Origin: a virus
Taxonomy: Duplodnaviria; Caudoviricetes
Strand: one strand, 5' to 3'
Virus record (IMG/VR): IMGVR_UViG_3300044266_000189
Location: 1 to 45,398 of that record
Length of the DNA: 45,398 nucleotides
The notes beneath the pieces are model-generated. The model ran no database searches. It was not told the DNA's origin and saw nothing but the letters and a program-made list of their open reading frames with translations. The translations under genes were made by a program, and so were the position numbers. Shown here in pieces: positions 12,502-36,079 of the stretch (position 1 is the stretch's first letter; every line of letters starts with the position of its first letter).

Positions 12502-12519
12502 TAACATTATGTGGTAATT

Positions 12520-25924: not shown

Positions 25925-26127
25925 GTAAATTGACTGAACATCAATTACTGACAAATCGTAAACGAATTTTTAATCCAAAAAATAAGAATGATGTTGAATT
26001 ATTAAAACAATTTTTAGTTAAAAATAGTTGGGGTTCTCCCTGCCCTTTTATTTTGGAAGAACCATATCTAACTATACCTGATATGATTAAAGATAAGTAT
26101 ATTAAACTAGCATTGGGGATTCGATGA
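25921..26127 (+). CDS. Hypothetical protein
   Basis: 68 aa ORF, SW...CPF.LE.PY..IP.M motif. Confidence 0.65.
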   Translation: MSKLTEHQLLTNRKRIFNPKNKNDVELLKQFLVKNSWGSPCPFILEEPYLTIPDMIKDKYIKLALGIR

Positions 26128-26297
26128 TTGATTGGTTAATGTATTCTGGTTGTAATATCACCTTGAAAATAAATCCATTTCATTGGAGATTGTCTTGCAA
26201 GTATAATCACAGTAACGATGTATGGGAACAAGATGCTTTAGTAATTGAATTGTTGCCTATTACTATTCGTATGTGGTTTGATAATGGTGAATGGTAA
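26124..26297 (+). CDS. Hypothetical 57 aa protein (not in ORF track)
   Basis: MIDWLMYSG...NPFHW...WFDNGEW*; ATGA and TAATG overlaps on both sides. Confidence 0.6.
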   Translation: MIDWLMYSGCNITLKINPFHWRLSCKYNHSNDVWEQDALVIELLPITIRMWFDNGEW

Positions 26298-26875
26298 TGA
26301 TACCTAGAAAACTAGTACCTCTCGATAGAATAAAACTCGTTGACCACTTTATGAATGATATTGTGGACAATGATAGACGTTTGCGTTTTGGTTATGAAGC
26401 ACCTGATACCGCTGTAAAAGAATATATTAAAAGTTCTATTGACTTTGATTATGGGTATGATAACATTTGGTTTGTGGTTGATGAAGGTGACAGAATTGTA
26501 GCAACTTGTCATGTGTCAATCAACCGTGAAACGAATACTGCTGAAATGGGTTGTACCGTTTCTCCAGATTATCGTAATCAAAAAGTTGGTCAAGAATTAT
26601 TTAATCGTGGTGTAACTTGGGCTAGAATGGCTGGTGCTGAACATGTGTTTATGCACTGCTTGTCTGAAAATAAAATCATTCAACATATTGCCAAAAAAGG
26701 TGGTATGACAGTAGTTACAATTGATCCAACAGAAAAAGAATCCACAATTCATGTGAAACAAAATCGATTTGAAGCAGGATTCAAAGACTATATTATGGAT
26801 ACAATTGCTGTTTATGATATGGCAGTAAGGCAACAATATTTCTTCACTAAGAAATTTCTAAAAGGATTTGTATAA
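26297..26875 (+). CDS. GNAT-family N-acetyltransferase
   Basis: AEMGCTVSPDYRNQKVGQELF motif A; CLSEN...IAKK.GM. Confidence 0.85.
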   Translation: MIPRKLVPLDRIKLVDHFMNDIVDNDRRLRFGYEAPDTAVKEYIKSSIDFDYGYDNIWFVVDEGDRIVATCHVSINRETNTAEMGCTVSPDYRNQKVGQELFNRGVTWARMAGAEHVFMHCLSENKIIQHIAKKGGMTVVTIDPTEKESTIHVKQNRFEAGFKDYIMDTIAVYDMAVRQQYFFTKKFLKGFV

Positions 26876-27237
26876 TGCAGTATTGGGGAAAACACTTAAT
26901 TATCGATGCCAAAGGATGTGATATTTCCAGAGCCACCGATCCAGAATATATCAAGCATTTTACCAAAGAACTGGTAAGACAGATTGAAATGGTAGCTTAT
27001 GGTGAACCCCAGGTGGTCCATTTTGCGGATGGAACTGATTTGGCAGGTTGGACAGTCATACAGTTAATTGAAACTTCCAACGTCACAGGACACTTCCTAG
27101 ACCATAATGGAGACCTTTACCTTGATGTGTTTAGTTGTAAAACCTTTGAGGAACAACGAGTTATAGATTGTTTAGAACATTTCTTTTCACCTGATGAAAT
27201 TAAATCTCAGGTATTGATAAGGGATGCTCGGTCATAA
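26875..27237 (+). CDS. speD: Pyruvoyl-dependent AdoMet decarboxylase-like proenzyme
   Basis: WGKHLIIDA..C, QLIETSN.T.HF, YLDVFSCK. Confidence 0.8.
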   Translation: MQYWGKHLIIDAKGCDISRATDPEYIKHFTKELVRQIEMVAYGEPQVVHFADGTDLAGWTVIQLIETSNVTGHFLDHNGDLYLDVFSCKTFEEQRVIDCLEHFFSPDEIKSQVLIRDARS

Positions 27238-27302
27238 ATAAGCGTAAGTGAGCAGGTACAGAGCGATACAATTATTGGGTCAATTTACTAAGGAGAGACC
27301 TA

Positions 27303-27806
27303 ATGAAGTTAAGTATAGTTGGTTGTCCCGATAAAAAACGCTTTAGACCCTTTGTTAAACGGGCTGCTCTTTTCTACGCAGAACAATTGCTAACTCCAAG
27401 AACACTAGAGAATTTTACTTTAAGAATAAAGTTTAATTCAAAGTTGGATGCTTATGGATATGCCTCAGCAACAGAATTTTCACCAAGTAATAAACCAAGA
27501 CAGTTTGAAATAGAATTACATCCTGGCATTGGTGCTTCTGATATATTGAAAACATTGGCACATGAAATGGTTCATGTAAAACAATATATCAAAGGTGATG
27601 TTAATATGAAACTTACTCGTTGGAAAGGCATGAGAGTTGATGATGTGGATTACTGGACTCAGCCTTGGGAAATAGAAGCACACGGATATGAATCCGGTCT
27701 ATTTACTAAATTTGCTGTTAAAGAAAAACTTTGGGAAGTATTTAAAGGTGTACAGAATCCGGATTCACCTATTGATTCTGAGCCACTTGGCTGGATTCAA
27801 ACATAG
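27303..27806 (+). CDS. Zn metallopeptidase-like protein
   Basis: TLAHEMVHVKQY (HExxH) and PWEIEA. Confidence 0.75.
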   Translation: MKLSIVGCPDKKRFRPFVKRAALFYAEQLLTPRTLENFTLRIKFNSKLDAYGYASATEFSPSNKPRQFEIELHPGIGASDILKTLAHEMVHVKQYIKGDVNMKLTRWKGMRVDDVDYWTQPWEIEAHGYESGLFTKFAVKEKLWEVFKGVQNPDSPIDSEPLGWIQT

Positions 27807-28380
27807 CATTTACTAGCATTTCAAACTGTTCATCACCATATTGATAATCTTCTAGTATCTCTAGCATTTTATCACATACCTCTAAAACTCGATTATGATT
27901 TTTGATATTTTCTTCTCGTTGTTTGATTTGGGTGGCAATAAAAGCTTTTAGTATATTCTCACCCTCTTTTTTCTTTTTGGTTTTGGCCAAGAATTTTTCT
28001 AGTTTGTTTATGGAATTAATGCAAATTGAAATCTGTTCCCTCAAATAGTTTTTCTCTCTTTCAATATCCATTTTCATAGATACGACCAAGTTACCCAATT
28101 CAGGATCAATTTGTTCCATGAAGATGTTAATTATTCTTGCAAGATTATTCATGGCTTCATCACGAAGATTTGGATTCATTTCATATTTTCCTGTTGTATC
28201 AAAATGTTTTCTACGGACAGGATCACTTAATATGGAATATGCTAGATTGATTTGTTTGAATTTTTCTTCATCACCATCAACTCTATCTGGATGGTATCGT
28301 TGAGCCAGTATACGAAACTTCTTTTTGATTTCATCATCTGTGGCTTGTGGAGGAACTTCTAGTATGGTATATGGATTCAT
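27769..28380 (-). CDS. J-domain (DnaJ-like) protein
   Basis: NPY.ILEV...IKKKFR.LA..YHPD...F..I..AY.ILSDP..R..D. Confidence 0.9.
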   Translation of the reverse strand: MNPYTILEVPPQATDDEIKKKFRILAQRYHPDRVDGDEEKFKQINLAYSILSDPVRRKHFDTTGKYEMNPNLRDEAMNNLARIINIFMEQIDPELGNLVVSMKMDIEREKNYLREQISICINSINKLEKFLAKTKKKKEGENILKAFIATQIKQREENIKNHNRVLEVCDKMLEILEDYQYGDEQFEMLVNAMFESSQVAQNQ

Positions 28381-28417
28381 GCTAATATATAGGATGAAAA
28401 AAATACCAAAAAAGTTA

Positions 28418-28446
28418 TTGACATACAGAAAAAGTGCCTATATAAT
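28418..28446 (+). promoter_or_regulatory. sigma70 promoter of leader peptide/tRNA operon
   Basis: TTGACA-17 nt-TATAAT perfect consensus; predicted TSS at or near A of ATG 28453. Confidence 0.9.
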
Positions 28447-28452
28447 AGAACA

Positions 28453-28530
28453 ATGAAAAACATATTTACGAACTCCTCAACACATTATACACCAGGGAAT
28501 AGTCCATGGTGTGAAGGGGTTCGTCTGTAA
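28453..28530 (+). CDS. Putative leaderless attenuator leader peptide MKNIFTNSSTHYTPGNSPWCEGVRL
   Basis: 25-codon ORF at predicted TSS overlapping alternative hairpins; codons match downstream tRNAs. Confidence 0.7.
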   Translation: MKNIFTNSSTHYTPGNSPWCEGVRL

Positions 28531-28590
28531 ATTTTTTAGTAGTACCAGATTTATACGAACCCAAGTCTAACAACTTGGGTTTTTTGTTTT
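28468..28590 (+). terminator. Attenuator: protector 1:2, antiterminator 2:3, intrinsic terminator 3:4
   Basis: 1=ACGAACTCCT (28468-77); 2=AGGGGTTCGT-CT-GTAAATTT (28515-34); 3=AGATTTATACGAACCC (28547-62); terminator AACCCAAGT-CTAACA-ACTTGGGTT-TTTTGTTTT (28558-90). Confidence 0.8.
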
Positions 28591-28594
28591 CCGT

Positions 28595-28668
28595 TTCTCG
28601 TTGGTGTAATGGTAGCACAAGGCACTCCAAACGCCTTGGCGGGAGTTCGATTCTCTCACGGGATGCCA
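28595..28668 (+). tRNA. tRNA-Trp(CCA)
   Basis: Cloverleaf, loop CT-CCA-AA, TTCGATT, G73, encoded CCA; U1-U72 and A31-C39 mismatches. Confidence 0.85.
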
Positions 28669-28676
28669 GTTTTATT

Positions 28677-28751
28677 CGGAGATTAGGCTAGTGGCAAGTC
28701 GCTCGGTTTGGGACCGAGAAATCGAATGTTCGATTCATTCATCTCCGACCA
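28677..28751 (+). tRNA. tRNA-Pro(TGG)
   Basis: CGGAGAT/ATCTCCG acceptor, CTCGG-TT-TGG-GA-CCGAG, A73, CCA. Confidence 0.93.
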
Positions 28752-28774
28752 TGTTGTTTCCATACAACAGTCGC

Positions 28775-28802
28775 TTGACTTATTGTGTGGTTCGTGTATA
28801 AT
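28775..28802 (+). promoter_or_regulatory. Internal sigma70-type promoter in tRNA array
   Basis: TTGACT-16 nt-TATAAT, preceded by TGTTG...CAACA inverted repeat. Confidence 0.6.
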
Positions 28803-28826
28803 GGTTTACTTAAATGTGAGTAACAA

Positions 28827-28982
28827 AATATTATAGTTAAATGTTATCAAGGTATCGTGTATAGACGTATACACTATTCGGGCCTAACTGGCGAGGGACA
28901 GGTCCTGAGATAACTGCTTAGTCGCTATGGGATGGGCGCACCAGACCCCTAAATGGAGCAGATAACATTTAATTATGATATT
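28827..28982 (+). ncRNA. Unknown structured RNA 1
   Basis: 22-bp closing stem with two G-U pairs; GC-rich interior with hairpins and possible pseudoknot. Confidence 0.7.
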
Positions 28983-28991
28983 AGTTTCAAT

Positions 28992-29067
28992 TCCGGTCAA
29001 GCAAACACGGTGTAGGCGGAGGACTGTTAATCCTTGAAGCGTGGTTCGATTCCACGGACCGGAGCCA
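28992..29067 (+). tRNA. tRNA-Asn(GTT)
   Basis: TCCGGTC/GACCGGA acceptor, CT-GTT-AA loop, G73, CCA; A at position 8, weak D stem. Confidence 0.9.
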
Positions 29068-29073
29068 AAAAAT

Positions 29074-29157
29074 GAAGCAGAAGCATCAATGGTGATGCAC
29101 TGGACTGTAAATTCAGCGCCTCTGGCACGCTTGGTTCGATCCCAAGATGCTCCACCA
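29074..29157 (+). tRNA. tRNA-Tyr(GTA)
   Basis: CTGGA-CT-GTA-AA-TTCAG, long variable arm, A73, CCA; two acceptor mismatches. Confidence 0.8.
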
Positions 29158-29201
29158 GATTTGAAATACGCTTTCTACTAAATATGTAGAAGGAGATTAT
29201 T

Positions 29202-29630
29202 ATGAAACAAAGACAAAATAGTTTTACTGATAATGAATTGATTGAAGCATATAATCAAGAAAAACATTTGGGTAAACTAGCAGTAAAATTTAAAGTTCCA
29301 CATATACAAATGTGGAGAAAATGTAAACAATTAGGATTACAATTTGGTAATGGTGGTGGTAATAATGGAAAGTTTTTACTGGATGATGTATTAAAAGGTT
29401 TACATCCATATTATCAAACTAATAAATTAAGAAAACGATTAATTCGTGAAGGTGTTTTTGAGAATAAATGTTTTTGTTGTGGAATTACTGAATACAACAA
29501 TAAACCAATTGTAATGCAGTTAGACCACGAAAATGGAGATAGTTCAGACCATCGTAAAGAAAATTTAAGGTTGTTGTGTCCTAATTGCCATTCTCAAACC
29601 GAAACATGGTGCGGTAAAAATAAACCATAA
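29202..29630 (+). CDS. HNH homing endonuclease inserted in tRNA array
   Basis: C..CG...LDHENG...D.R.ENLRLLCPNCH; SD AAGGAG. Confidence 0.9.
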   Translation: MKQRQNSFTDNELIEAYNQEKHLGKLAVKFKVPHIQMWRKCKQLGLQFGNGGGNNGKFLLDDVLKGLHPYYQTNKLRKRLIREGVFENKCFCCGITEYNNKPIVMQLDHENGDSSDHRKENLRLLCPNCHSQTETWCGKNKP

Positions 29631-29633
29631 AAA

Positions 29634-29729
29634 AACAGGAGGCCTTGTGTCTGTCAAGCTCACGACCTGTTAAAATAAATGTGAGTGGGAGTTTGTTAGT
29701 TTATCCTTCAGTAGAAGCCAAACTGACAC
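29634..29729 (+). ncRNA. Putative pseudoknot plus hairpin RNA element
   Basis: AACAGG/CCTGTT crossed by GCTCAC/GTGAGT with A-rich linker; TGTTAGTTT/AAACTGACA stem. Confidence 0.45.
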
Positions 29730-29732
29730 CTT

Positions 29733-29806
29733 GCCTTTTTAGTTAAATGGTATAACGCTTGACTTGTAATCATGAATTGTTGGTTCGATTCCATCAAGAG
29801 GCACCA
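29733..29806 (+). tRNA. tRNA-Thr(TGT)
   Basis: GCCTTTT/AAGAGGC acceptor, CT-TGT-AA loop, TTCGATT, CCA. Confidence 0.9.
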
Positions 29807-29824
29807 ATTTTAAGGAGAGTAAAG

Positions 29825-29987
29825 AATTATTATAGTGAAGTGTTTTGCTCGTTATTGTTGAGCGGCATAAACCCCCTGTCGGGTTTCGCTGGATACGGCA
29901 CCGCAAAGTATACAAGAAAACACGCCAGACATTTTAGCATGTGGGCTGGTAGGAAGGGAAGCTACAAAACACTTCACTATAATAATT
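29825..29987 (+). ncRNA. Unknown structured RNA 2
   Basis: Perfect 23-bp terminal inverted repeat enclosing a GC-rich multi-hairpin interior. Confidence 0.7.
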
Positions 29988-29989
29988 TG

Positions 29990-30066
29990 GGGCCTTTAGC
30001 TCAGTTGGTTAGAGCAGTCGGCTCATAACCGTCAGGTCGTTGGATCATACCCAACAAGGCCCACCA
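29990..30066 (+). tRNA. tRNA(CAT), probably Ile2 (lysidine, reads AUA)
   Basis: GGGCCTT/AAGGCCC with C4-G69, C5-G68 TilS-type determinants; resembles E. coli tRNA-Ile2; atypical T loop ATCATAC. Confidence 0.8.
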
Positions 30067-30084
30067 AGTTTACCAAACAAAGCA

Positions 30085-30113
30085 TTGACTTTGTTTATAA
30101 GTAATGATATAGT
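30085..30113 (+). promoter_or_regulatory. sigma70-type promoter for tRNA-Gly-like RNA and tRNA-Gly
   Basis: TTGACT-17 nt-TATAGT with TG extension. Confidence 0.7.
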
Positions 30114-30122
30114 ATTACATAT

Positions 30123-30189
30123 GCGGTGTGTGATAGCACGATTTAAGATTCCCTCTTAAATTATCTGAGCAAAGCAGACCACCGCTCCA
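30123..30189 (+). ncRNA. Non-canonical tRNA-Gly-like RNA (67 nt)
   Basis: GCGGTG/CACCGC-T-CCA acceptor, mini D hairpin, 8-9 bp anticodon stem with TCC loop, T arm lacking TTC. Confidence 0.75.
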
Positions 30190-30190
30190 T

Positions 30191-30264
30191 GCGGGATTAG
30201 TTTAGTGGTAAAACTGGAGATTTCCAATCTCCTGTCGTCAGTTCGATTCTGACATCCCGCTCCA
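30191..30264 (+). tRNA. tRNA-Gly(TCC)
   Basis: GCGGGAT/ATCCCGC, GGAGA-TT-TCC-AA-TCTCC, U73, CCA. Confidence 0.95.
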
Positions 30265-30444
30265 TTATTGAGGATGTGAGAGAAAGAAAAGGAATCCTAA
30301 CTGTTAAGGAGAAACACTATCCTAGCAATATCGTATCCACTATCCGGAGATTTTCTACCATCCCAAAAGTAGAATGAAAGCGTGAGGTCTAGGAGATGGG
30401 TTTTTAAAGCCATCTTAAACACACAACAGTATCCTCAATAATGG
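30262..30444 (+). ncRNA. Unknown structured RNA 3
   Basis: 15-bp closing stem CCATTATTGAGGATG/TATCCTCAATAATGG starting at the tRNA-Gly CCA; internal stems TCCTAG/CTAGGA, TTCTAC/GTAGAA, AGATGG/CCATCT. Confidence 0.6.
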
Positions 30445-30544
30445 ATTTTTTCGATAATACTTATCAAAACATATCATAATTCAAATAAGTCTTTTTTTAA
30501 GTTTTATCGTATAGATAATATTATGATTAACTTTTGGAGATATC

Positions 30545-31003
30545 ATGTCAATTACAATTAATAATTTAGAAAGTGCCTTAGCAGGTGAAAGCCAAGCACA
30601 CATCAAGTACCGTTACTTTGCAAAGATTGCTCGTGAGAATGGTCATGAAGATGTAGCAAAACATTTCGAGCATACAGCAGACCAAGAGTTGCTTCATGCT
30701 TGGGGACATTTGGAATTACTTATCGGTAAACCAAGTACCAAAGAATGTTTAGAAAAGGCCATTGAAGGTGAAACATATGAATTTACCACAATGTATCCAA
30801 AGTTCTTAGAAAATGCAACTAATGAAAAGAACGCACAAGCAACTGTTGAGTTTGTAGAACAAATTGCAGAATCAAAAGAACATGCTGACCAGTTTAAGCA
30901 GAAATTAGAAGTTTTGAATAAAGCCGAAAAACGTTTTGCTGCTTTGAAGAAAGTAGAAGAACGTCATGCTAATGCCTATAAACAAGTTTTGGAGAACCTA
31001 TAA
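30545..31003 (+). CDS. rbr: Rubrerythrin (ferritin-like diiron domain)
   Basis: NLESALAGESQAH.KY..FA, E..HA, GETYE...MYP.F, E..HA. Confidence 0.92.
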   Translation: MSITINNLESALAGESQAHIKYRYFAKIARENGHEDVAKHFEHTADQELLHAWGHLELLIGKPSTKECLEKAIEGETYEFTTMYPKFLENATNEKNAQATVEFVEQIAESKEHADQFKQKLEVLNKAEKRFAALKKVEERHANAYKQVLENL

Positions 31004-31134
31004 TGCGTAGATACTATCGTTGTGTGGTTTGTGGCCACATCCTTGAAGAAGCAGATTACTTAGCACTACCTGATGAAGTTACTTGTCCTGAATGTGGTGT
31101 ATCCAAAGAGGATTATGAATTAGTAGTTGAATAA
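31003..31134 (+). CDS. Rubredoxin-like protein (43 aa, not in ORF track)
   Basis: CVVCGH...LPD...CPECGVSKEDY; TAATG coupling to rubrerythrin. Confidence 0.88.
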   Translation: MRRYYRCVVCGHILEEADYLALPDEVTCPECGVSKEDYELVVE

Positions 31135-31174
31135 GTAATGGAGTAACCGGTTTTCGGTGATTAAAGGAGATATT

Positions 31175-31321
31175 ATGACTAAAGAAATTAAACCCATCAA
31201 AGCTACACCAAAAAGAGTACCTATGATTGAAGGTCGTAAAAACATTCCAAATGTTAAGAACCGAGGACCGGTCTCAGCAAAGTCATCAGCGCCAATGCGT
31301 AGAAGTGGGAGAGGAAGATGA
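31175..31321 (+). CDS. Small basic protein (48 aa)
   Basis: MTKEIKPIKATPKR...APMRRSGRGR*; SD AAGGAG. Confidence 0.65.
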   Translation: MTKEIKPIKATPKRVPMIEGRKNIPNVKNRGPVSAKSSAPMRRSGRGR

Positions 31322-31464
31322 ATCTAAAAGGTGCAGACGAAACTCAAAAAGATCCAGTTCAAGAGCAAGATGAAAAAAATCTAGACGATGAGTTCCACCG
31401 TATTGAACAGGAACAAGAACAGAGAAAAAAATTTAAAGAACCTAGTGCAGCGATTTGGCCATGA
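31318..31464 (+). CDS. Small acidic protein (48 aa)
   Basis: MNLKGADETQKD...DDEFHRIE...AAIWP*; ATGA overlap, GGAGAGG upstream. Confidence 0.6.
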   Translation: MNLKGADETQKDPVQEQDEKNLDDEFHRIEQEQEQRKKFKEPSAAIWP

Positions 31465-31534
31465 TTTCCATCCAAGTAATAAGTATTGAACCTATTACAA
31501 TAAATGTAAATGCAATAATTGGTAATTTGTTCAT
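31442..31534 (-). CDS. Small hydrophobic protein (30 aa)
   Basis: MNKLPIIAFTFIVIGSILITWMEIMAKSLH*; SD GAGG. Confidence 0.5.
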   Translation of the reverse strand: MNKLPIIAFTFIVIGSILITWMEIMAKSLH

Positions 31535-31563
31535 AACGACCTCAAGTTATTTCTAATATATAG

Positions 31564-31683
31564 TTATTTTTGGCTCACAGTTGTTGGTTTTTTCTGATCC
31601 CTTATATCCGATTCTAATACCATTAGTGTAAGCACTAACGCCAGTACTCCTATGAATACTGTTGGTTGTAATCCTTTTTTCAT
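31564..31683 (-). CDS. Small single-TM protein (39 aa)
   Basis: MKKGLQPTVFIGVLALVLTLMVLESDIRDQKKPTTVSQK*; ATGA overlap with upstream minus ORF. Confidence 0.55.
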   Translation of the reverse strand: MKKGLQPTVFIGVLALVLTLMVLESDIRDQKKPTTVSQK

Positions 31684-32108
31684 TTGTATAACTTAAAGAA
31701 GTAAGTAATGAGTGCCGAAACAGTCATACACCACCAGAATAATTCTTGGACTTTGTGGCGGTCAGCATCCATTAATTTTTCTTCTTCTTCCTTTTCTTTT
31801 CTTAGTTTAAGTTTCAAAGACTCAATTTCATTCCATGCTTGGTGACCATATTTCGATATGGCTTGAGCTTTGATTTTTTGTACTTCCTTTTCGTGAGCTT
31901 TTTGCTTTTCATAAGCTTCAAAAGCTCTAAATTCTTCTAAAGATTGTTCGTATGCTTTTCTAGCTGCAGCTTGCATACGTTGTTTGTGTTGGTCTTTGAC
32001 GGCATTTTCCATTGTGGCTTGTTGGTCCCCAACAATACCACCTAGGTCTTTGCTCATTTGATTGGCGCCTTTGAGCACATTCACGCCACTAGATAATGGA
32101 TCTAACAT
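31680..32108 (-). CDS. Hypothetical coiled-coil protein with C-terminal TM helix
   Basis: KYG..AW.EI motif, hydrophobic C-terminus; minus-strand TATAAATA at 32178-32185. Confidence 0.75.
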   Translation of the reverse strand: MLDPLSSGVNVLKGANQMSKDLGGIVGDQQATMENAVKDQHKQRMQAAARKAYEQSLEEFRAFEAYEKQKAHEKEVQKIKAQAISKYGHQAWNEIESLKLKLRKEKEEEEKLMDADRHKVQELFWWCMTVSALITYFFKLYK

Positions 32109-32128
32109 TAAAATATACCGTTATTTGG

Positions 32129-32157
32129 TTGACAAAAAAGACAAAAAATAGTATACT
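32129..32157 (+). promoter_or_regulatory. sigma70-type promoter for gp43 operon
   Basis: TTGACA-17 nt-TATACT. Confidence 0.8.
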
Positions 32158-32200
32158 TTAATTCAAATCATTGTATATATTTATAAAGGAAAAACGTGGT

Positions 32201-32512
32201 ATGAACATTCAAATCTTAAAATTGGTCACTGGAGAAGAAGTTTTAGCGGAAATTGAATCTCAGGATGAATCTTGTTATGTGCTGGTCAATCCAGTCGGTA
32301 TTGCAGTAGTTCGTGGTAAAGATGGTCAACCTAGTGTAGGTCTAGCACCATTTCCACTTCATAGTGAACAAAAGACTGGAGCCACTATTGACATACCTAA
32401 GCGTAGTGTAGTATACTCTTATGTTCCAGCGGAAGATTTCATTAACAATTATAATCAAATCTTTGGTTCTGGTATTGTAGTTCCTCCAACGAAACAAATC
32501 ATTACAGGTTAA
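32201..32512 (+). CDS. Conserved hypothetical protein preceding DNA polymerase
   Basis: ILKLVTGEEVLA...YNQIFGSGIVVP motif typical at this position. Confidence 0.8.
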   Translation: MNIQILKLVTGEEVLAEIESQDESCYVLVNPVGIAVVRGKDGQPSVGLAPFPLHSEQKTGATIDIPKRSVVYSYVPAEDFINNYNQIFGSGIVVPPTKQIITG

Positions 32513-32513
32513 A

Positions 32514-35051
32514 TTGAGTAACTTTTATACTAATGTACAAAGCTTCGGTAATAATATTCTTTATCGAGGTATTCAAAATGGTAAAGCGGTGAGGGAGAGA
32601 ATTGAATATTCTCCTTCACTCTTTATTCCTTCCAAAAAGATAACTAACTTCACCTCACTCGATGGTGATTATCTCGACCAAAAACTCTTTGGTGATATTC
32701 GTGCAGCAAGAGAATACATCAAGCAGTTCGATGGCATTCCTGGCGCACCAAAGATTTATGGACAAACTCGGTTCGAGTATGCTTATATTGCAGACCAACA
32801 TCATGGTATGGTCGATTATGATTTTGACAAAGTTCAAATTGCCGTAATCGATATCGAGGTGGGTTCTGAAAATGGTTTCCCTGATCCATATCAAGCAAAC
32901 GAACCCATCACAGCCATTTGTATCAAGTTTCTAAATCAAGCACCTTTCGTGTTTGCCTGTGGTGAATATGAAGTTCAAGGTAATGAAGTATACATTCGTT
33001 GTAAAGACGAATACAATCTTTGCAAACAATTCATGGAGTTTTGGAAAGACAAATATCCTGATATTGTAACCGGTTGGAATACAAAGTTCTTTGATATACC
33101 ATATCTCATCAATCGATTCAGAAAAATTCTTGGTGAACCTGAAACTAAGAAGTTATCTCCTTGGTCTTATATCTCCGAGCGAAACACCATAATTAATGGT
33201 CGACAGATGACTGCTTATGGTCTACTTGGTGTTGAATCACTTGACTATATTGAATTATACAAATGGTACGCACCTGGCGGTAAGTCACAAGAATCTTATC
33301 GTCTTGATGCAATTGCACAAGTAGAACTTGGTGAAGGTAAAATCTCATATGATGAATATGATAACCTACACTCATTGTATCGTTTAAATTTTCAAAAGTT
33401 TATTGAGTATAACATTAAAGACGTTGAACTTATTATTAAACTGGAAGATAAACTAAAACTGCTTGAGTTGGCCGTAACTCTTGCCTATGATACTAAGACA
33501 AACTTTGAGGATGTCTTTGCACAAACTCGTATGTGGGATTCATTGACCTATTCTTATCTGTTTGAGAAAGGCATCATTGTACCACCAAGAGTAATCAAAG
33601 AAAAAGATTCTGCCTTTGAGGGTGCTTATGTTAAAGAGGTACAAGTTGGTAAACACGATTGGGTGGCATCATTTGACTTGAACTCATTGTATCCGCATTT
33701 GATGATGCAATACAATATCAGTCCTGAAACACTCATCAATCCAGAAAACTATACAGATGACATGCGTGATATTCTCTCGCAAGGTATTTCTGTTGATAAG
33801 ATGTTGGCCAAAAAAGTTGATTTGTCTAAATTGAATGGTGCAACAATTACTCCTAACGGACAATTCTTTCGTACAGACTTCCAAGGTTTCTTACCAAAGA
33901 TGATGGAAGAAATGTATACTGACCGTAAGAAGTTTAAGAAGTTGATGCTTCAAGCAAAACAGGAATATGAAAATGAAACTGACAATTCCAAAAAGTACGA
34001 AATTGAAAAACGTATTGCAAAGTACAATAACATCCAATTGGCTAAGAAAGTATCACTTAATTCTGCTTACGGTGCTCTTGGTTCTCAGTATTTTAGATTT
34101 TATGATTTGCGTATGGCTCTTGGTGTTACTACCGCTGGACAATTATCTATTCGGTGGATAGAAGGTAAGATTAACGATTGGATGAACAAAATATTAAAGA
34201 CTGAAAATGAAGATTACGTTATTGCGAGCGATACTGATTCCATTTATCTTAACCTTGGTCCTCTTGTTACGAGTATCGTTAAAACACCGACTGAAACTCC
34301 TAAAATTATCACCATCATGGATAGAATCTGTGAAGATAAAATTCAACCATATATTGATAGAAGTTACCAAGAGTTGGCTTCGTATGTTAACGCATATCAG
34401 CAGAAGATGGAAATGAAACGAGAAGGTTTGTCCAATGTAGGAATCTGGACTGCCAAGAAACGATACATTCTCAATGTGTATAATAATGAAGGTGTTGCAT
34501 ATAAAGAACCACAACTTAAAGTAATGGGTCTTGAAATGGTGAAGTCATCAACACCTGCCGTTATTCGTGAGAAGATGTATGAGTTGATTAAATTGTTGGT
34601 GACGGGTACAGAAGATGATGTACATAAGTTTATTGAAGATTTCAAAGAACAATTTAAAACATTACCACCTGAAGATATTTCTTCACCAAGAGGTTGTAAT
34701 GGTTTGGCTAAATACTATGATTCGGTAACATTGTATAAACTTGGTACACCAATTCATGTTAAAGGTGCCATTCTCTATAATCATTATCTCAAAGAAAAAG
34801 GATTAACTAAAAAGTATCCTTTGATTCAAGAAGGTGAAAAACTGAAGTATAGTTACCTTAAAACACCAAATCATTTTAAGAATACCGTAATATCTTTTCC
34901 CGGTAGATTACCAAAAGAGTTTGGGCTTGACAATTATATCGATTATGATTTACAATTTGAAAAGTCATTTATAGAACCCATCAAAGTTATTTTGGATTGT
35001 ATGGGATGGACAACAGAAAAAATAAGTAGTCTGGAGGACTTCTTCTCATGA
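32514..35051 (+). CDS. gp43: Family B DNA polymerase
   Basis: ExoI DIE, SFDLNSLYPH, KVSLNSAYG, SDTDS; uninterrupted. Confidence 0.98.
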   Translation: MSNFYTNVQSFGNNILYRGIQNGKAVRERIEYSPSLFIPSKKITNFTSLDGDYLDQKLFGDIRAAREYIKQFDGIPGAPKIYGQTRFEYAYIADQHHGMVDYDFDKVQIAVIDIEVGSENGFPDPYQANEPITAICIKFLNQAPFVFACGEYEVQGNEVYIRCKDEYNLCKQFMEFWKDKYPDIVTGWNTKFFDIPYLINRFRKILGEPETKKLSPWSYISERNTIINGRQMTAYGLLGVESLDYIELYKWYAPGGKSQESYRLDAIAQVELGEGKISYDEYDNLHSLYRLNFQKFIEYNIKDVELIIKLEDKLKLLELAVTLAYDTKTNFEDVFAQTRMWDSLTYSYLFEKGIIVPPRVIKEKDSAFEGAYVKEVQVGKHDWVASFDLNSLYPHLMMQYNISPETLINPENYTDDMRDILSQGISVDKMLAKKVDLSKLNGATITPNGQFFRTDFQGFLPKMMEEMYTDRKKFKKLMLQAKQEYENETDNSKKYEIEKRIAKYNNIQLAKKVSLNSAYGALGSQYFRFYDLRMALGVTTAGQLSIRWIEGKINDWMNKILKTENEDYVIASDTDSIYLNLGPLVTSIVKTPTETPKIITIMDRICEDKIQPYIDRSYQELASYVNAYQQKMEMKREGLSNVGIWTAKKRYILNVYNNEGVAYKEPQLKVMGLEMVKSSTPAVIREKMYELIKLLVTGTEDDVHKFIEDFKEQFKTLPPEDISSPRGCNGLAKYYDSVTLYKLGTPIHVKGAILYNHYLKEKGLTKKYPLIQEGEKLKYSYLKTPNHFKNTVISFPGRLPKEFGLDNYIDYDLQFEKSFIEPIKVILDCMGWTTEKISSLEDFFS

Positions 35052-36079
35052 TATTTCTAACATTCTTATGTGCATTAGCACTTTCAGGCATTGCGGCTTG
35101 GTACTCAGTAATTGGTCTAGCGGCCATCTTTACTGGTGCCTTTTGGCCAATCGTTTTGATGGGTTCGGTCTTAGAAGCCAGTAAACTGGTTACTACATCA
35201 TGGTTATATCGTAATTGGAAGACCTGCCCACTTTTATTGAAAACATATTTAACGACTGCTGTTGTTATCTTGATGTTAATTACTTCTATGGGTATTTTTG
35301 GATTCTTGTCCAAATCACACATCGATTCGACACTAGATGCTGGCGCCAACAATGTAGAAGTTAAGACACTCAATCAACAAGAAAAGATTGCCAAAGAACG
35401 ATTGGATTATTTGTTGGCTCGTGCCAAGGATCCATCTACAGCAAGCAATCGTTTAGATAAACAGATTCAAGATACACAAAAAGAATTGAATGACATTAGT
35501 AAGAAGAAGTTACCATTACTAAAAGAATCCAATAAACTGGTAGCTGAAGTTGGACCTATCAAGTATGTTGGTGATATGATTTATGGTACTGATGATGATA
35601 ATGCCATCGATAAAGCAGTTCGTCTGGTAATCATGTTGATTATGGTTGTATTCGATCCATTGGCTGTGTTATTATTGATAGCAGCAAATATGTCGTTGAG
35701 AATGGAAAGAAACCCTGGTAAACCTATTGTGAAAAACGGTGAAGTTGTTGGTTTAACTCCTTCTGATATTCCGGTATTCGTACCTGAGAAAAAAGTGGAA
35801 GAACCTAAACCACCAAAAGAACCTCCAAAAGAAGATAAGGTTGAAGTACAAAAACAAAACATCGTTGAGATAAGAGAAGAACCTCCTATCGTAATTGATG
35901 GTGCTTCGGAAGAAAGTATTCCTCCTCTCACAAGCAAAAGAGAAGTACATCATGCACCTGGTATTTTTAGTGAAGAACATCATGAACCAGAACCGGCTAA
36001 AAAGTTAGAGCCTAAGTATGATTATGATGCTGAGTATGCGTTTAAAGAAAAAGAGAAATTAGATGGTGGTGATTTTTAA
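35048..36079 (+). CDS. Hypothetical membrane protein
   Basis: N-terminal TMs, TSMGIFGFLSK, EVGPIKY, VFDPLAV; Pro/Glu-rich tail. Confidence 0.75.
   Translation: MIFLTFLCALALSGIAAWYSVIGLAAIFTGAFWPIVLMGSVLEASKLVTTSWLYRNWKTCPLLLKTYLTTAVVILMLITSMGIFGFLSKSHIDSTLDAGANNVEVKTLNQQEKIAKERLDYLLARAKDPSTASNRLDKQIQDTQKELNDISKKKLPLLKESNKLVAEVGPIKYVGDMIYGTDDDNAIDKAVRLVIMLIMVVFDPLAVLLLIAANMSLRMERNPGKPIVKNGEVVGLTPSDIPVFVPEKKVEEPKPPKEPPKEDKVEVQKQNIVEIREEPPIVIDGASEESIPPLTSKREVHHAPGIFSEEHHEPEPAKKLEPKYDYDAEYAFKEKEKLDGGDF

Follow-up and report, generated by a model that had tools for sequence, protein, structure and literature searches.

Leader-peptide attenuators such as trpL, hisL, leuL and pheL, the multivalent thrL and ilvL, and pheM of pheST are the closest described counterparts of the element reported here, and T-box riboswitches, in which a long structured stem makes direct contact with the tRNA and whose antiterminators use a UGGN motif, form a second point of comparison. 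It has long been asked why phages have tRNA genes of their own, and codon compensation, replacement of degraded host tRNAs and escape from tRNA-cutting defences are under discussion (PMC11025619). A switch that turns on phage tRNA genes upon slow decoding would state what the phage measures, and it would take attenuation in its classical form a step further, into a closed loop that yields the tRNA itself. The locus described below carries, at the head of a phage tRNA island, a leader and hairpin element that dozens of relatives have kept. From its sequence and from folding models we interpret it as a transcription attenuator that is coupled to the ribosome and controls the entry into phage tRNA genes, in this phage wholly so for tRNA-Trp and tRNA-Pro. 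We put the probability of this reading at about 0.8.

The window, that is, the whole stretch of 45,398 nt that was analysed, derives from a T4-like phage and is a fragment, the virus record being about 27% complete; the sequencing runs that contain most of it are freshwater metagenomes, and no RNA run is listed among them. It encodes sheath, portal and major head proteins, the gp55 late sigma factor (at 12511), the clamp loader, regA and a family B polymerase. The tRNA island lies between regA and the polymerase gene and comprises, all on the plus strand, tRNA-Trp(CCA) (28595..28668), tRNA-Pro(UGG) (28677..28751), tRNA-Asn(GUU) (28992..29067), a weak-scoring tRNA-Tyr(GUA) (29074..29154; 28.1 bits in Rfam at a gathering score of 29, and called by ARAGORN at lowered threshold), tRNA-Thr(UGU) (29733..29806), a tRNA with CAU anticodon that was called Met (29990..30066) and, finally, tRNA-Gly(UCC) (30191..30264). 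Genes with a CAU anticodon can be lysidine Ile tRNAs (PMC1524935). The island also contains an HNH endonuclease gene (29202-29630), with a CTAAATA box and a hairpin over its ribosome-binding site upstream, and a tRNA-shaped RNA directly before tRNA-Gly (30122-30190) which ARAGORN and Rfam both missed and which has matches in 71 of the 297 redundant loci collected in this work, the best of them 91-96% identical. Four non-coding stretches, 28841-28972, 29634-29732, 29829-29978 and 30265-30445, match 11, 4, 3 and 12 loci, respectively; three of the four are closed by long terminal stems, they belong to no Rfam family, and they are candidates for structured RNAs within the island.

The leader begins with a sigma-70-type promoter, TTGACA-17-TATAAT (28418..28446, plus strand; -35 at 28418-23, -10 at 28441-46), which scores 12/12 and is the sole site to do so among the 44 promoter sites found in 26000-36000. 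In agreement with the preliminary description, its predicted start is the A of an ATG (28453) located 7 nt after the -10 element and preceded by no purine-rich Shine-Dalgarno sequence. This ATG opens a predicted leaderless ORF of 25 codons (28453..28530, plus strand; MKNIFTNSSTHYTPGNSPWCEGVRL*) which uses 17 different amino acids (p=0.012 as compared to window proteins, 0.053 as compared to base shuffles) and whose peptide has no match in Pfam. Overlapping the -10 element is a TATATA box (28439..28444, plus strand), likely a variant late promoter of the gp55 type with a predicted start near 28450. A TA[TAC]ATA box is found 5-8 nt before the ATG in all 21 leaders of the close family, the sigma-70 -35 element in only 6 of them, and within the window TAAATA stands upstream of 5/8 late genes versus 1/13 other genes. 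The T4 late promoter consensus is TATAAATA at -13 to -6 (PMC1524935). The invariable box, the sporadic -35 element and the likeness to the T4 late consensus suggest that the leader is likely transcribed late across the family, with an early promoter added in this window.

Between a conserved 167-aa gene and the leader sits a DnaJ-domain gene (27769-28380, minus strand) that is absent from this position in the relatives compared. It is an insert, the distance from anchor to terminator being 755 nt here versus 117-158 nt in 16/18 relatives, and since its start shows the TATATA-N5-ATG arrangement seen at the leader ORF, we regard it as a likely late gene, leaderless and pointing away from the leader. 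The stretch 28431-28570 is identical at every letter in one sequencing run (X1), a match that is not independent because this run may be the source sample; metagenome contigs over the leader provided no usable variants except for a one-base loop insertion at 28568.

The preliminary description had proposed that three segments of the leader RNA pair in mutually exclusive ways, and the individual helices are borne out by folding. Segment 1 (28468..28477), which is weakly conserved, pairs with segment 2 (28515-24) when the ribosome is absent: the duplex reaches z=-2.5 and is present in the minimum free energy structure of the whole leader (-43.0 kcal/mol, terminator included). Segment 2 at its full extent (28516..28534) consists of a G run with core (28516/17-24), a 2-nt bulge and an extension (28527-34), and pairs through 28517-34 with segment 3 (28547..28562) in a helix of 8+8 bp with the 2-nt bulge at -16.0 kcal/mol. 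The stop codon had been placed inside segment 2 as 28515-24; the TAA (28528-30) lies outside these limits and inside the extended arm of the 2:3 helix. The 3' end of segment 3 (28557-62) doubles as the 5' arm of an intrinsic terminator (28557..28590, plus strand; stem 28557-82, U tract 28580-90) of -13.2 kcal/mol, and the U tract ends closely before tRNA-Trp, which begins at 28595. The duplex of segment 3 with the upstream 80 nt reaches -13.4 as compared to -7.2+/-1.7 in dinucleotide shuffles, 2/500 of which are as low. The parts of the leader element are not due to chance.

How these structures would respond to translation was addressed with a folding model in which the bases beneath the ribosome are forced open. 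For a transcript up to 28566 the model predicts the 2:3 helix at P=1.00 with the ribosome at A-site codons 4-19, and a freed terminator arm with the ribosome at codons 20-26. The full leader without ribosome is predicted to terminate at P=1.00, and at equilibrium the terminator retains 45-100% in the stalled states of the full leader, so that read-through needs kinetic trapping, with 2:3 forming before the terminator. The trp attenuator likewise relies on 2:3 forming first. Counted from the first base in the P site, the bacterial mRNA channel takes up a further 11 nt (PMC7282821). With such a channel and Trp19 in the A site, coverage ends at 28515 and 28516 is the first base of the G run, which leaves a margin of zero. 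The earlier caution that a stall at the Trp codon (28507) may partly cover segment 2 falls away if the ribosome covers 11 nt, by just this margin; with a footprint 3 nt larger than assumed the model has a Trp19 stall terminate. Trp19 is the final codon at which a stall leaves segment 2 free in the model, and in 62/82 leaders 9-15 nt separate the last Trp codon from segment 2. In silico, then, a ribosome at the end of the ORF masks segment 2 and a ribosome at the control codons does not, as is expected of an attenuator.

From this we propose the following course of events. A ribosome likely starts on the leaderless ATG, translation of which we infer. Should it read beyond Trp19, it would cover segment 2 and the terminator would form; should it stall at or before Trp19, segment 2 would stay free and capture the 5' arm of the terminator, and transcription would continue into the tRNA genes. 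If no ribosome loads, the folding predicts termination. With a mini-gene and stop/go hairpins placed before tRNA-Trp and tRNA-Pro, the phage would thus likely make more of both tRNAs only on stalling.

Loci for comparison were collected through two neighbouring proteins (the best 80 of 576 and the best 80 of 405 matches), through segment-2/3 patterns and through terminator-only patterns, to a redundant total of 297. The close family comprises 21 unique leaders, the window included, and was retrieved by a search that fixed the last five codons and neither start nor frame. All 21 nonetheless have an in-frame ATG and no internal stop, the frame being open from an ATG just behind the TATATA-type box to the shared last codons, and in 20/21 the start is the first ATG after the promoter box. 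Their distances from ATG to segment 2 fall into five length classes only, 54, 57, 60, 63 and 66 nt. When terminators close to tRNA genes were collected without selecting on segment 2, an antiterminator (z<-2) was found at 76 of 87 unique ones; over all loci 84/94 tRNA-proximal terminators have an antiterminator and 10/94 have none. In two of the latter (L081 and L086) a tRNA gene follows within 10 nt of the terminator and there is no leader, which is a case of either leakiness or decay. Terminators of the same shape in cellular genomes mostly lie just 3' of a tRNA gene, and 21 of 23 such matches lack an antiterminator (duplex -6.0 to -8.9).

Both the short ORF and the 2:3 pairing are thus kept in homologous loci, and the 2:3 helix as well as the terminator covary across relatives. 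Segment 3 binds its own upstream region at -12.3 and foreign ones at -8.1 kcal/mol (0/20000 permutations over 39 distinct segments 3, a comparison that ignores relatedness). Covariation in 2:3 amounts to 31 double changes in 5/8 pairs, a level reached in 0/500 shuffles and above all slid controls (plain MAFFT alignment of 34 sequence types, relatedness again ignored). In an alignment anchored on the G and C runs, 172/210 cells at positions 5-10 are paired versus 112+/-7.5 expected, likewise irrespective of relatedness and leaving out two loci that have no anchor (L278, L300). Terminator and inner arm together are 96.5% paired with 17 double changes in 20 close leaders, and the terminator stem has compensatory changes in 2/9 pairs across 20 leaders; the covariation involves several distinct pair sets. 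The 1:2 helix, by which the preliminary description had completed a trp-type 1:2/2:3/3:4 logic, does form here and is significant in 10/24 short and in just 1/56 long leaders. We take it to be probably a local extra and not part of the conserved core. Of the trp-type logic the frame of the ORF, the covarying 2:3 helix and terminator and the ribosome model agree, and the 1:2 arm is poorly conserved. In accordance with the poor conservation of segment 1, the exact pattern of segments 1, 2 and 3 gave 45 matches, none of them homologous. The 11 loci reached through the adjacent DnaJ gene include none with tRNAs, and of the isolated phages found with blastn, the 40 of 247 records that were listed match the tRNA part only. 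Rows were dropped where the terminator was missing or the match a chance one (L214, L244, L246), or where the ORF was not assignable or the locus leaderless (L118, L303 and, for covariation, also L155 and L073).

Some loci depart from the common arrangement. The leader has been lost from L152, L162 and L287, and in the first two of these a sigma-70-like promoter is placed such that its start would fall in the 5' arm of the terminator, which would disable the hairpin. A full 39-codon leader followed by a terminator and tRNA-Gln is found at 2390-2740 of a contig in a Methylophilaceae MAG (L373), next to genes which resemble, as named by eye, rpmB, dut and coaBC; unrelated sequence follows near the contig end, so that the assembly is possibly chimeric. 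If real, this locus would be a cellular copy or a clue to the host. A 24-codon member before tRNA-Ser (L364, 1810-1940) on a 2-kb contig binned as Bacteroidia is likely a phage fragment. Finally, the leader of L260 (4932-5030) is of another kind: codons for Ile, Val, Ala, Glu and Gly abound in it, and the tRNAs that follow are those for Glu, Ala, Ile, Val, Gly and Glu, which is the strongest mirroring of tRNAs by codons that we have seen.

Which tRNAs depend on the switch is a matter of the promoters behind it. The two internal promoter-like sites noticed earlier are both present: TTGACT-16-TATAAT at 28775..28802 (plus strand, 11/12), which would let the distal genes bypass the switch, and a second site at 30085..30113 (plus strand, 10/12). 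tRNA-Trp and tRNA-Pro precede the first of them and are reached by read-through only, and thus they alone depend wholly on the switch; the original notion of a gated array holds in that tRNA genes are the output and has to be narrowed to the head of the array. Directly upstream of the internal -35 element lies a palindrome (TGTTGT...ACAACA, 28752-28770), possibly a protein-binding site, which precedes internal promoters in many relatives; the stretch 28752-28810 has matches in 32/297 redundant loci. Among the long-leader arrays with room for a promoter between terminator and first tRNA, 27/39 have a sigma-70-like one there, so that the switch is often not the sole entry. Its likely role is to add conditional output on top of other entries; only the first tRNAs of arrays with short leaders would have no entry besides it.

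The likely sensing codons of the window leader are cognate to the two gated tRNAs and lie at 28492..28509 (plus strand): Pro14 (CCA, 28492), Pro18 (CCA, 28504) and Trp19 (TGG, 28507). Since this member is short and only two tRNAs depend on it wholly, the predictions for these three codons are sharp. We counted as gated all tRNAs that follow the terminator and precede the first internal promoter, dropping 4/32 loci in which no internal promoter was found. In the remaining 28 loci a codon for the gated type occurs upstream of segment 2 in 74/77 cases as compared to a permutation mean of 60.2 (0/20000); tandem runs of control codons are not found in the leaders. Gated types other than Trp have a mean of 2.0 codons versus 1.2 (15 short leaders; p=5e-5). 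Of the variable codons in 16 short leaders, 56.5% match amino acids of the leader's own array versus 45.6% in shuffled pairings (0/20000; p=0.002 without three Leu-rich loci). Long leaders (31-49 codons), which stand before arrays of up to 29 tRNAs, contain 19-20 amino acids in 44/45 cases; for comparison, 36-mers of window proteins contain all 20 with P=0.0008. Short leaders precede reduced arrays, and the number of amino acids follows array size (rho=0.81, n=45). The window leader is a trimmed version of this family, the long forms of which have 19-20 amino acids before 20-29 tRNAs. Some of its codons (three for Ser, and those for His, Cys, Glu, Lys, Ile and Phe) have no tRNA in the island. 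Two sister loci (L102 and L269) differ jointly in the Trp codon and in tRNA-Trp, and the window has neither tRNA-Ala nor Ala codons, whereas three sisters with sequenced arrays have both, as do the nearest relatives by neighbouring protein (the 99/97 clade). The tree of the neighbouring protein offers 1-2 independent pairs for each amino acid, and among the 12 rows listed none reaches significance; with so few, the match of codons and tRNAs may partly be shared ancestry. Co-evolution of codons and tRNAs is suggested by these comparisons.

But could the same structure measure something other than the supply of particular tRNAs? A gauge of translation speed or coupling would share the structure with our attenuator and differ in the quantity sensed: codon identity would be minor, any slowdown such as ribosome shortage, antibiotics or host shut-off would open the switch, and the codon match would be inherited. 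It would sit well with the identical state predicted for stalls at any of codons 4-19, with the many leader codons that lack a cognate phage tRNA and with a number of phylogenetically independent pairs too small to show co-evolution. However, it is at odds with the 74/77 match and the enrichment of non-Trp gated types, with the joint change of Trp codon and tRNA-Trp between L102 and L269, with the parallel absence or presence of tRNA-Ala and Ala codons in the window and its three sisters, and with the occurrence of nearly all 20 amino acids in the long leaders, and we consider it unlikely.

The covarying segment 2 also bears on a second proposal, namely that the hairpin is nothing more than a leaky terminator, there to stop incoming transcription or to trim the precursor of the tRNAs, that promoters set the tRNA levels, and that the ORF is a by-product or encodes a small trans-acting peptide. 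Such shapes do end bacterial tRNA genes, promoters downstream are common, and 10 of the 94 phage cases lack an antiterminator, two of them with a tRNA right behind. Yet this proposal leaves unexplained why segment 2 covaries, why length changes preserve the frame and why amino-acid content tracks array size despite sequence drift, and the lack of a Pfam match for the peptide does not speak for a trans-acting product; it appears very unlikely to us. Least probable, and barely to be credited, is a switch that works independently of the ribosome, either like a T-box, by pairing of UGG with the CCA of uncharged tRNA, or through a phage protein that stabilises 2:3. The TGG invariant in 20 aligned close leaders would be in keeping with it, but this TGG invariably forms a codon in the frame of the ORF, lies outside the 2:3 helix and has disappeared along with tRNA-Trp from L269, and Rfam has no T-box or other cis-regulator match to the element at gathering score or at E<=5. 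Identity with a T-box riboswitch as such was rejected, there being no Rfam match.

What purpose would an attenuator of tRNA genes serve? We infer a negative feedback, in which the tRNAs made would accelerate decoding at just those codons through which their shortage had been sensed. The greatest benefit would come late in infection, and in cases where tRNA molecules disappear and do not just lack their amino acid: additional tRNA remedies a loss of tRNA and not amino-acid starvation, which is an argument and not a result. Any cause of slow decoding, cleavage by anticodon nucleases among them, fits the evidence equally. More tentatively, and with somewhat less than an even chance of being right, the element may serve these lake phages as a programmable tRNA thermostat, the codons of which are edited in step with the tRNAs behind the terminator and which provides replacements on demand, including after cutting by host defences. 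The leader codons would then be a record of the tRNAs that run short in the host.

In the literature we found no description of attenuation of tRNA genes; supplements and subscription catalogues of predicted phage RNA motifs could hold one. The string 'attenuat' does not occur in PMC3014915. Why a phage should step up its tRNA output, as the element here is proposed to do, becomes understandable from work on the supplementation of tRNAs against tRNA-cleaving defences, in which rescue hinged on a strong promoter of the phage tRNAs (PMC11555353), a topic also treated in PMC10264068 and PMC11464382. Different from our locus, it is promoter strength that matters there, and 'attenuat' occurs 0 times in the main text of PMC11555353. 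Attenuators that sense translation stalls in general, such as those of whiB7 and vmlR (PMC10274678, PMC9226507), likewise combine a uORF with a terminator/antiterminator pair to report translation problems, and differ in that they control cellular stress or resistance proteins, whereas here the codons follow the tRNA block. With T-box riboswitches the element shares that tRNA status would set the choice between terminator and antiterminator; it is set apart from them in being an ORF and in leaving unmatched the Rfam model, with its stem I and specifier loop and its antiterminator bulge. The closest likeness is to attenuators of the trpL/thrL type, with which it has in common a short ORF between promoter and regulated genes, overlapping segments 1 and 2, mutually exclusive 2:3 antiterminator and 3:4 intrinsic terminator, and predicted termination upon fast as well as upon absent translation. 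Unlike these, it has a leaderless start and a weakly conserved 1:2 helix, it has one to three codons for each of several tRNAs in place of tandem control codons, its output is phage tRNA genes and not genes of amino-acid biosynthesis or synthetases, and its product itself reads the sensing codons. Taken together, the structural logic is the known one of the trp and thr type; what sets the element apart is that tRNA genes are the output and that tandem control codons are dispensed with.
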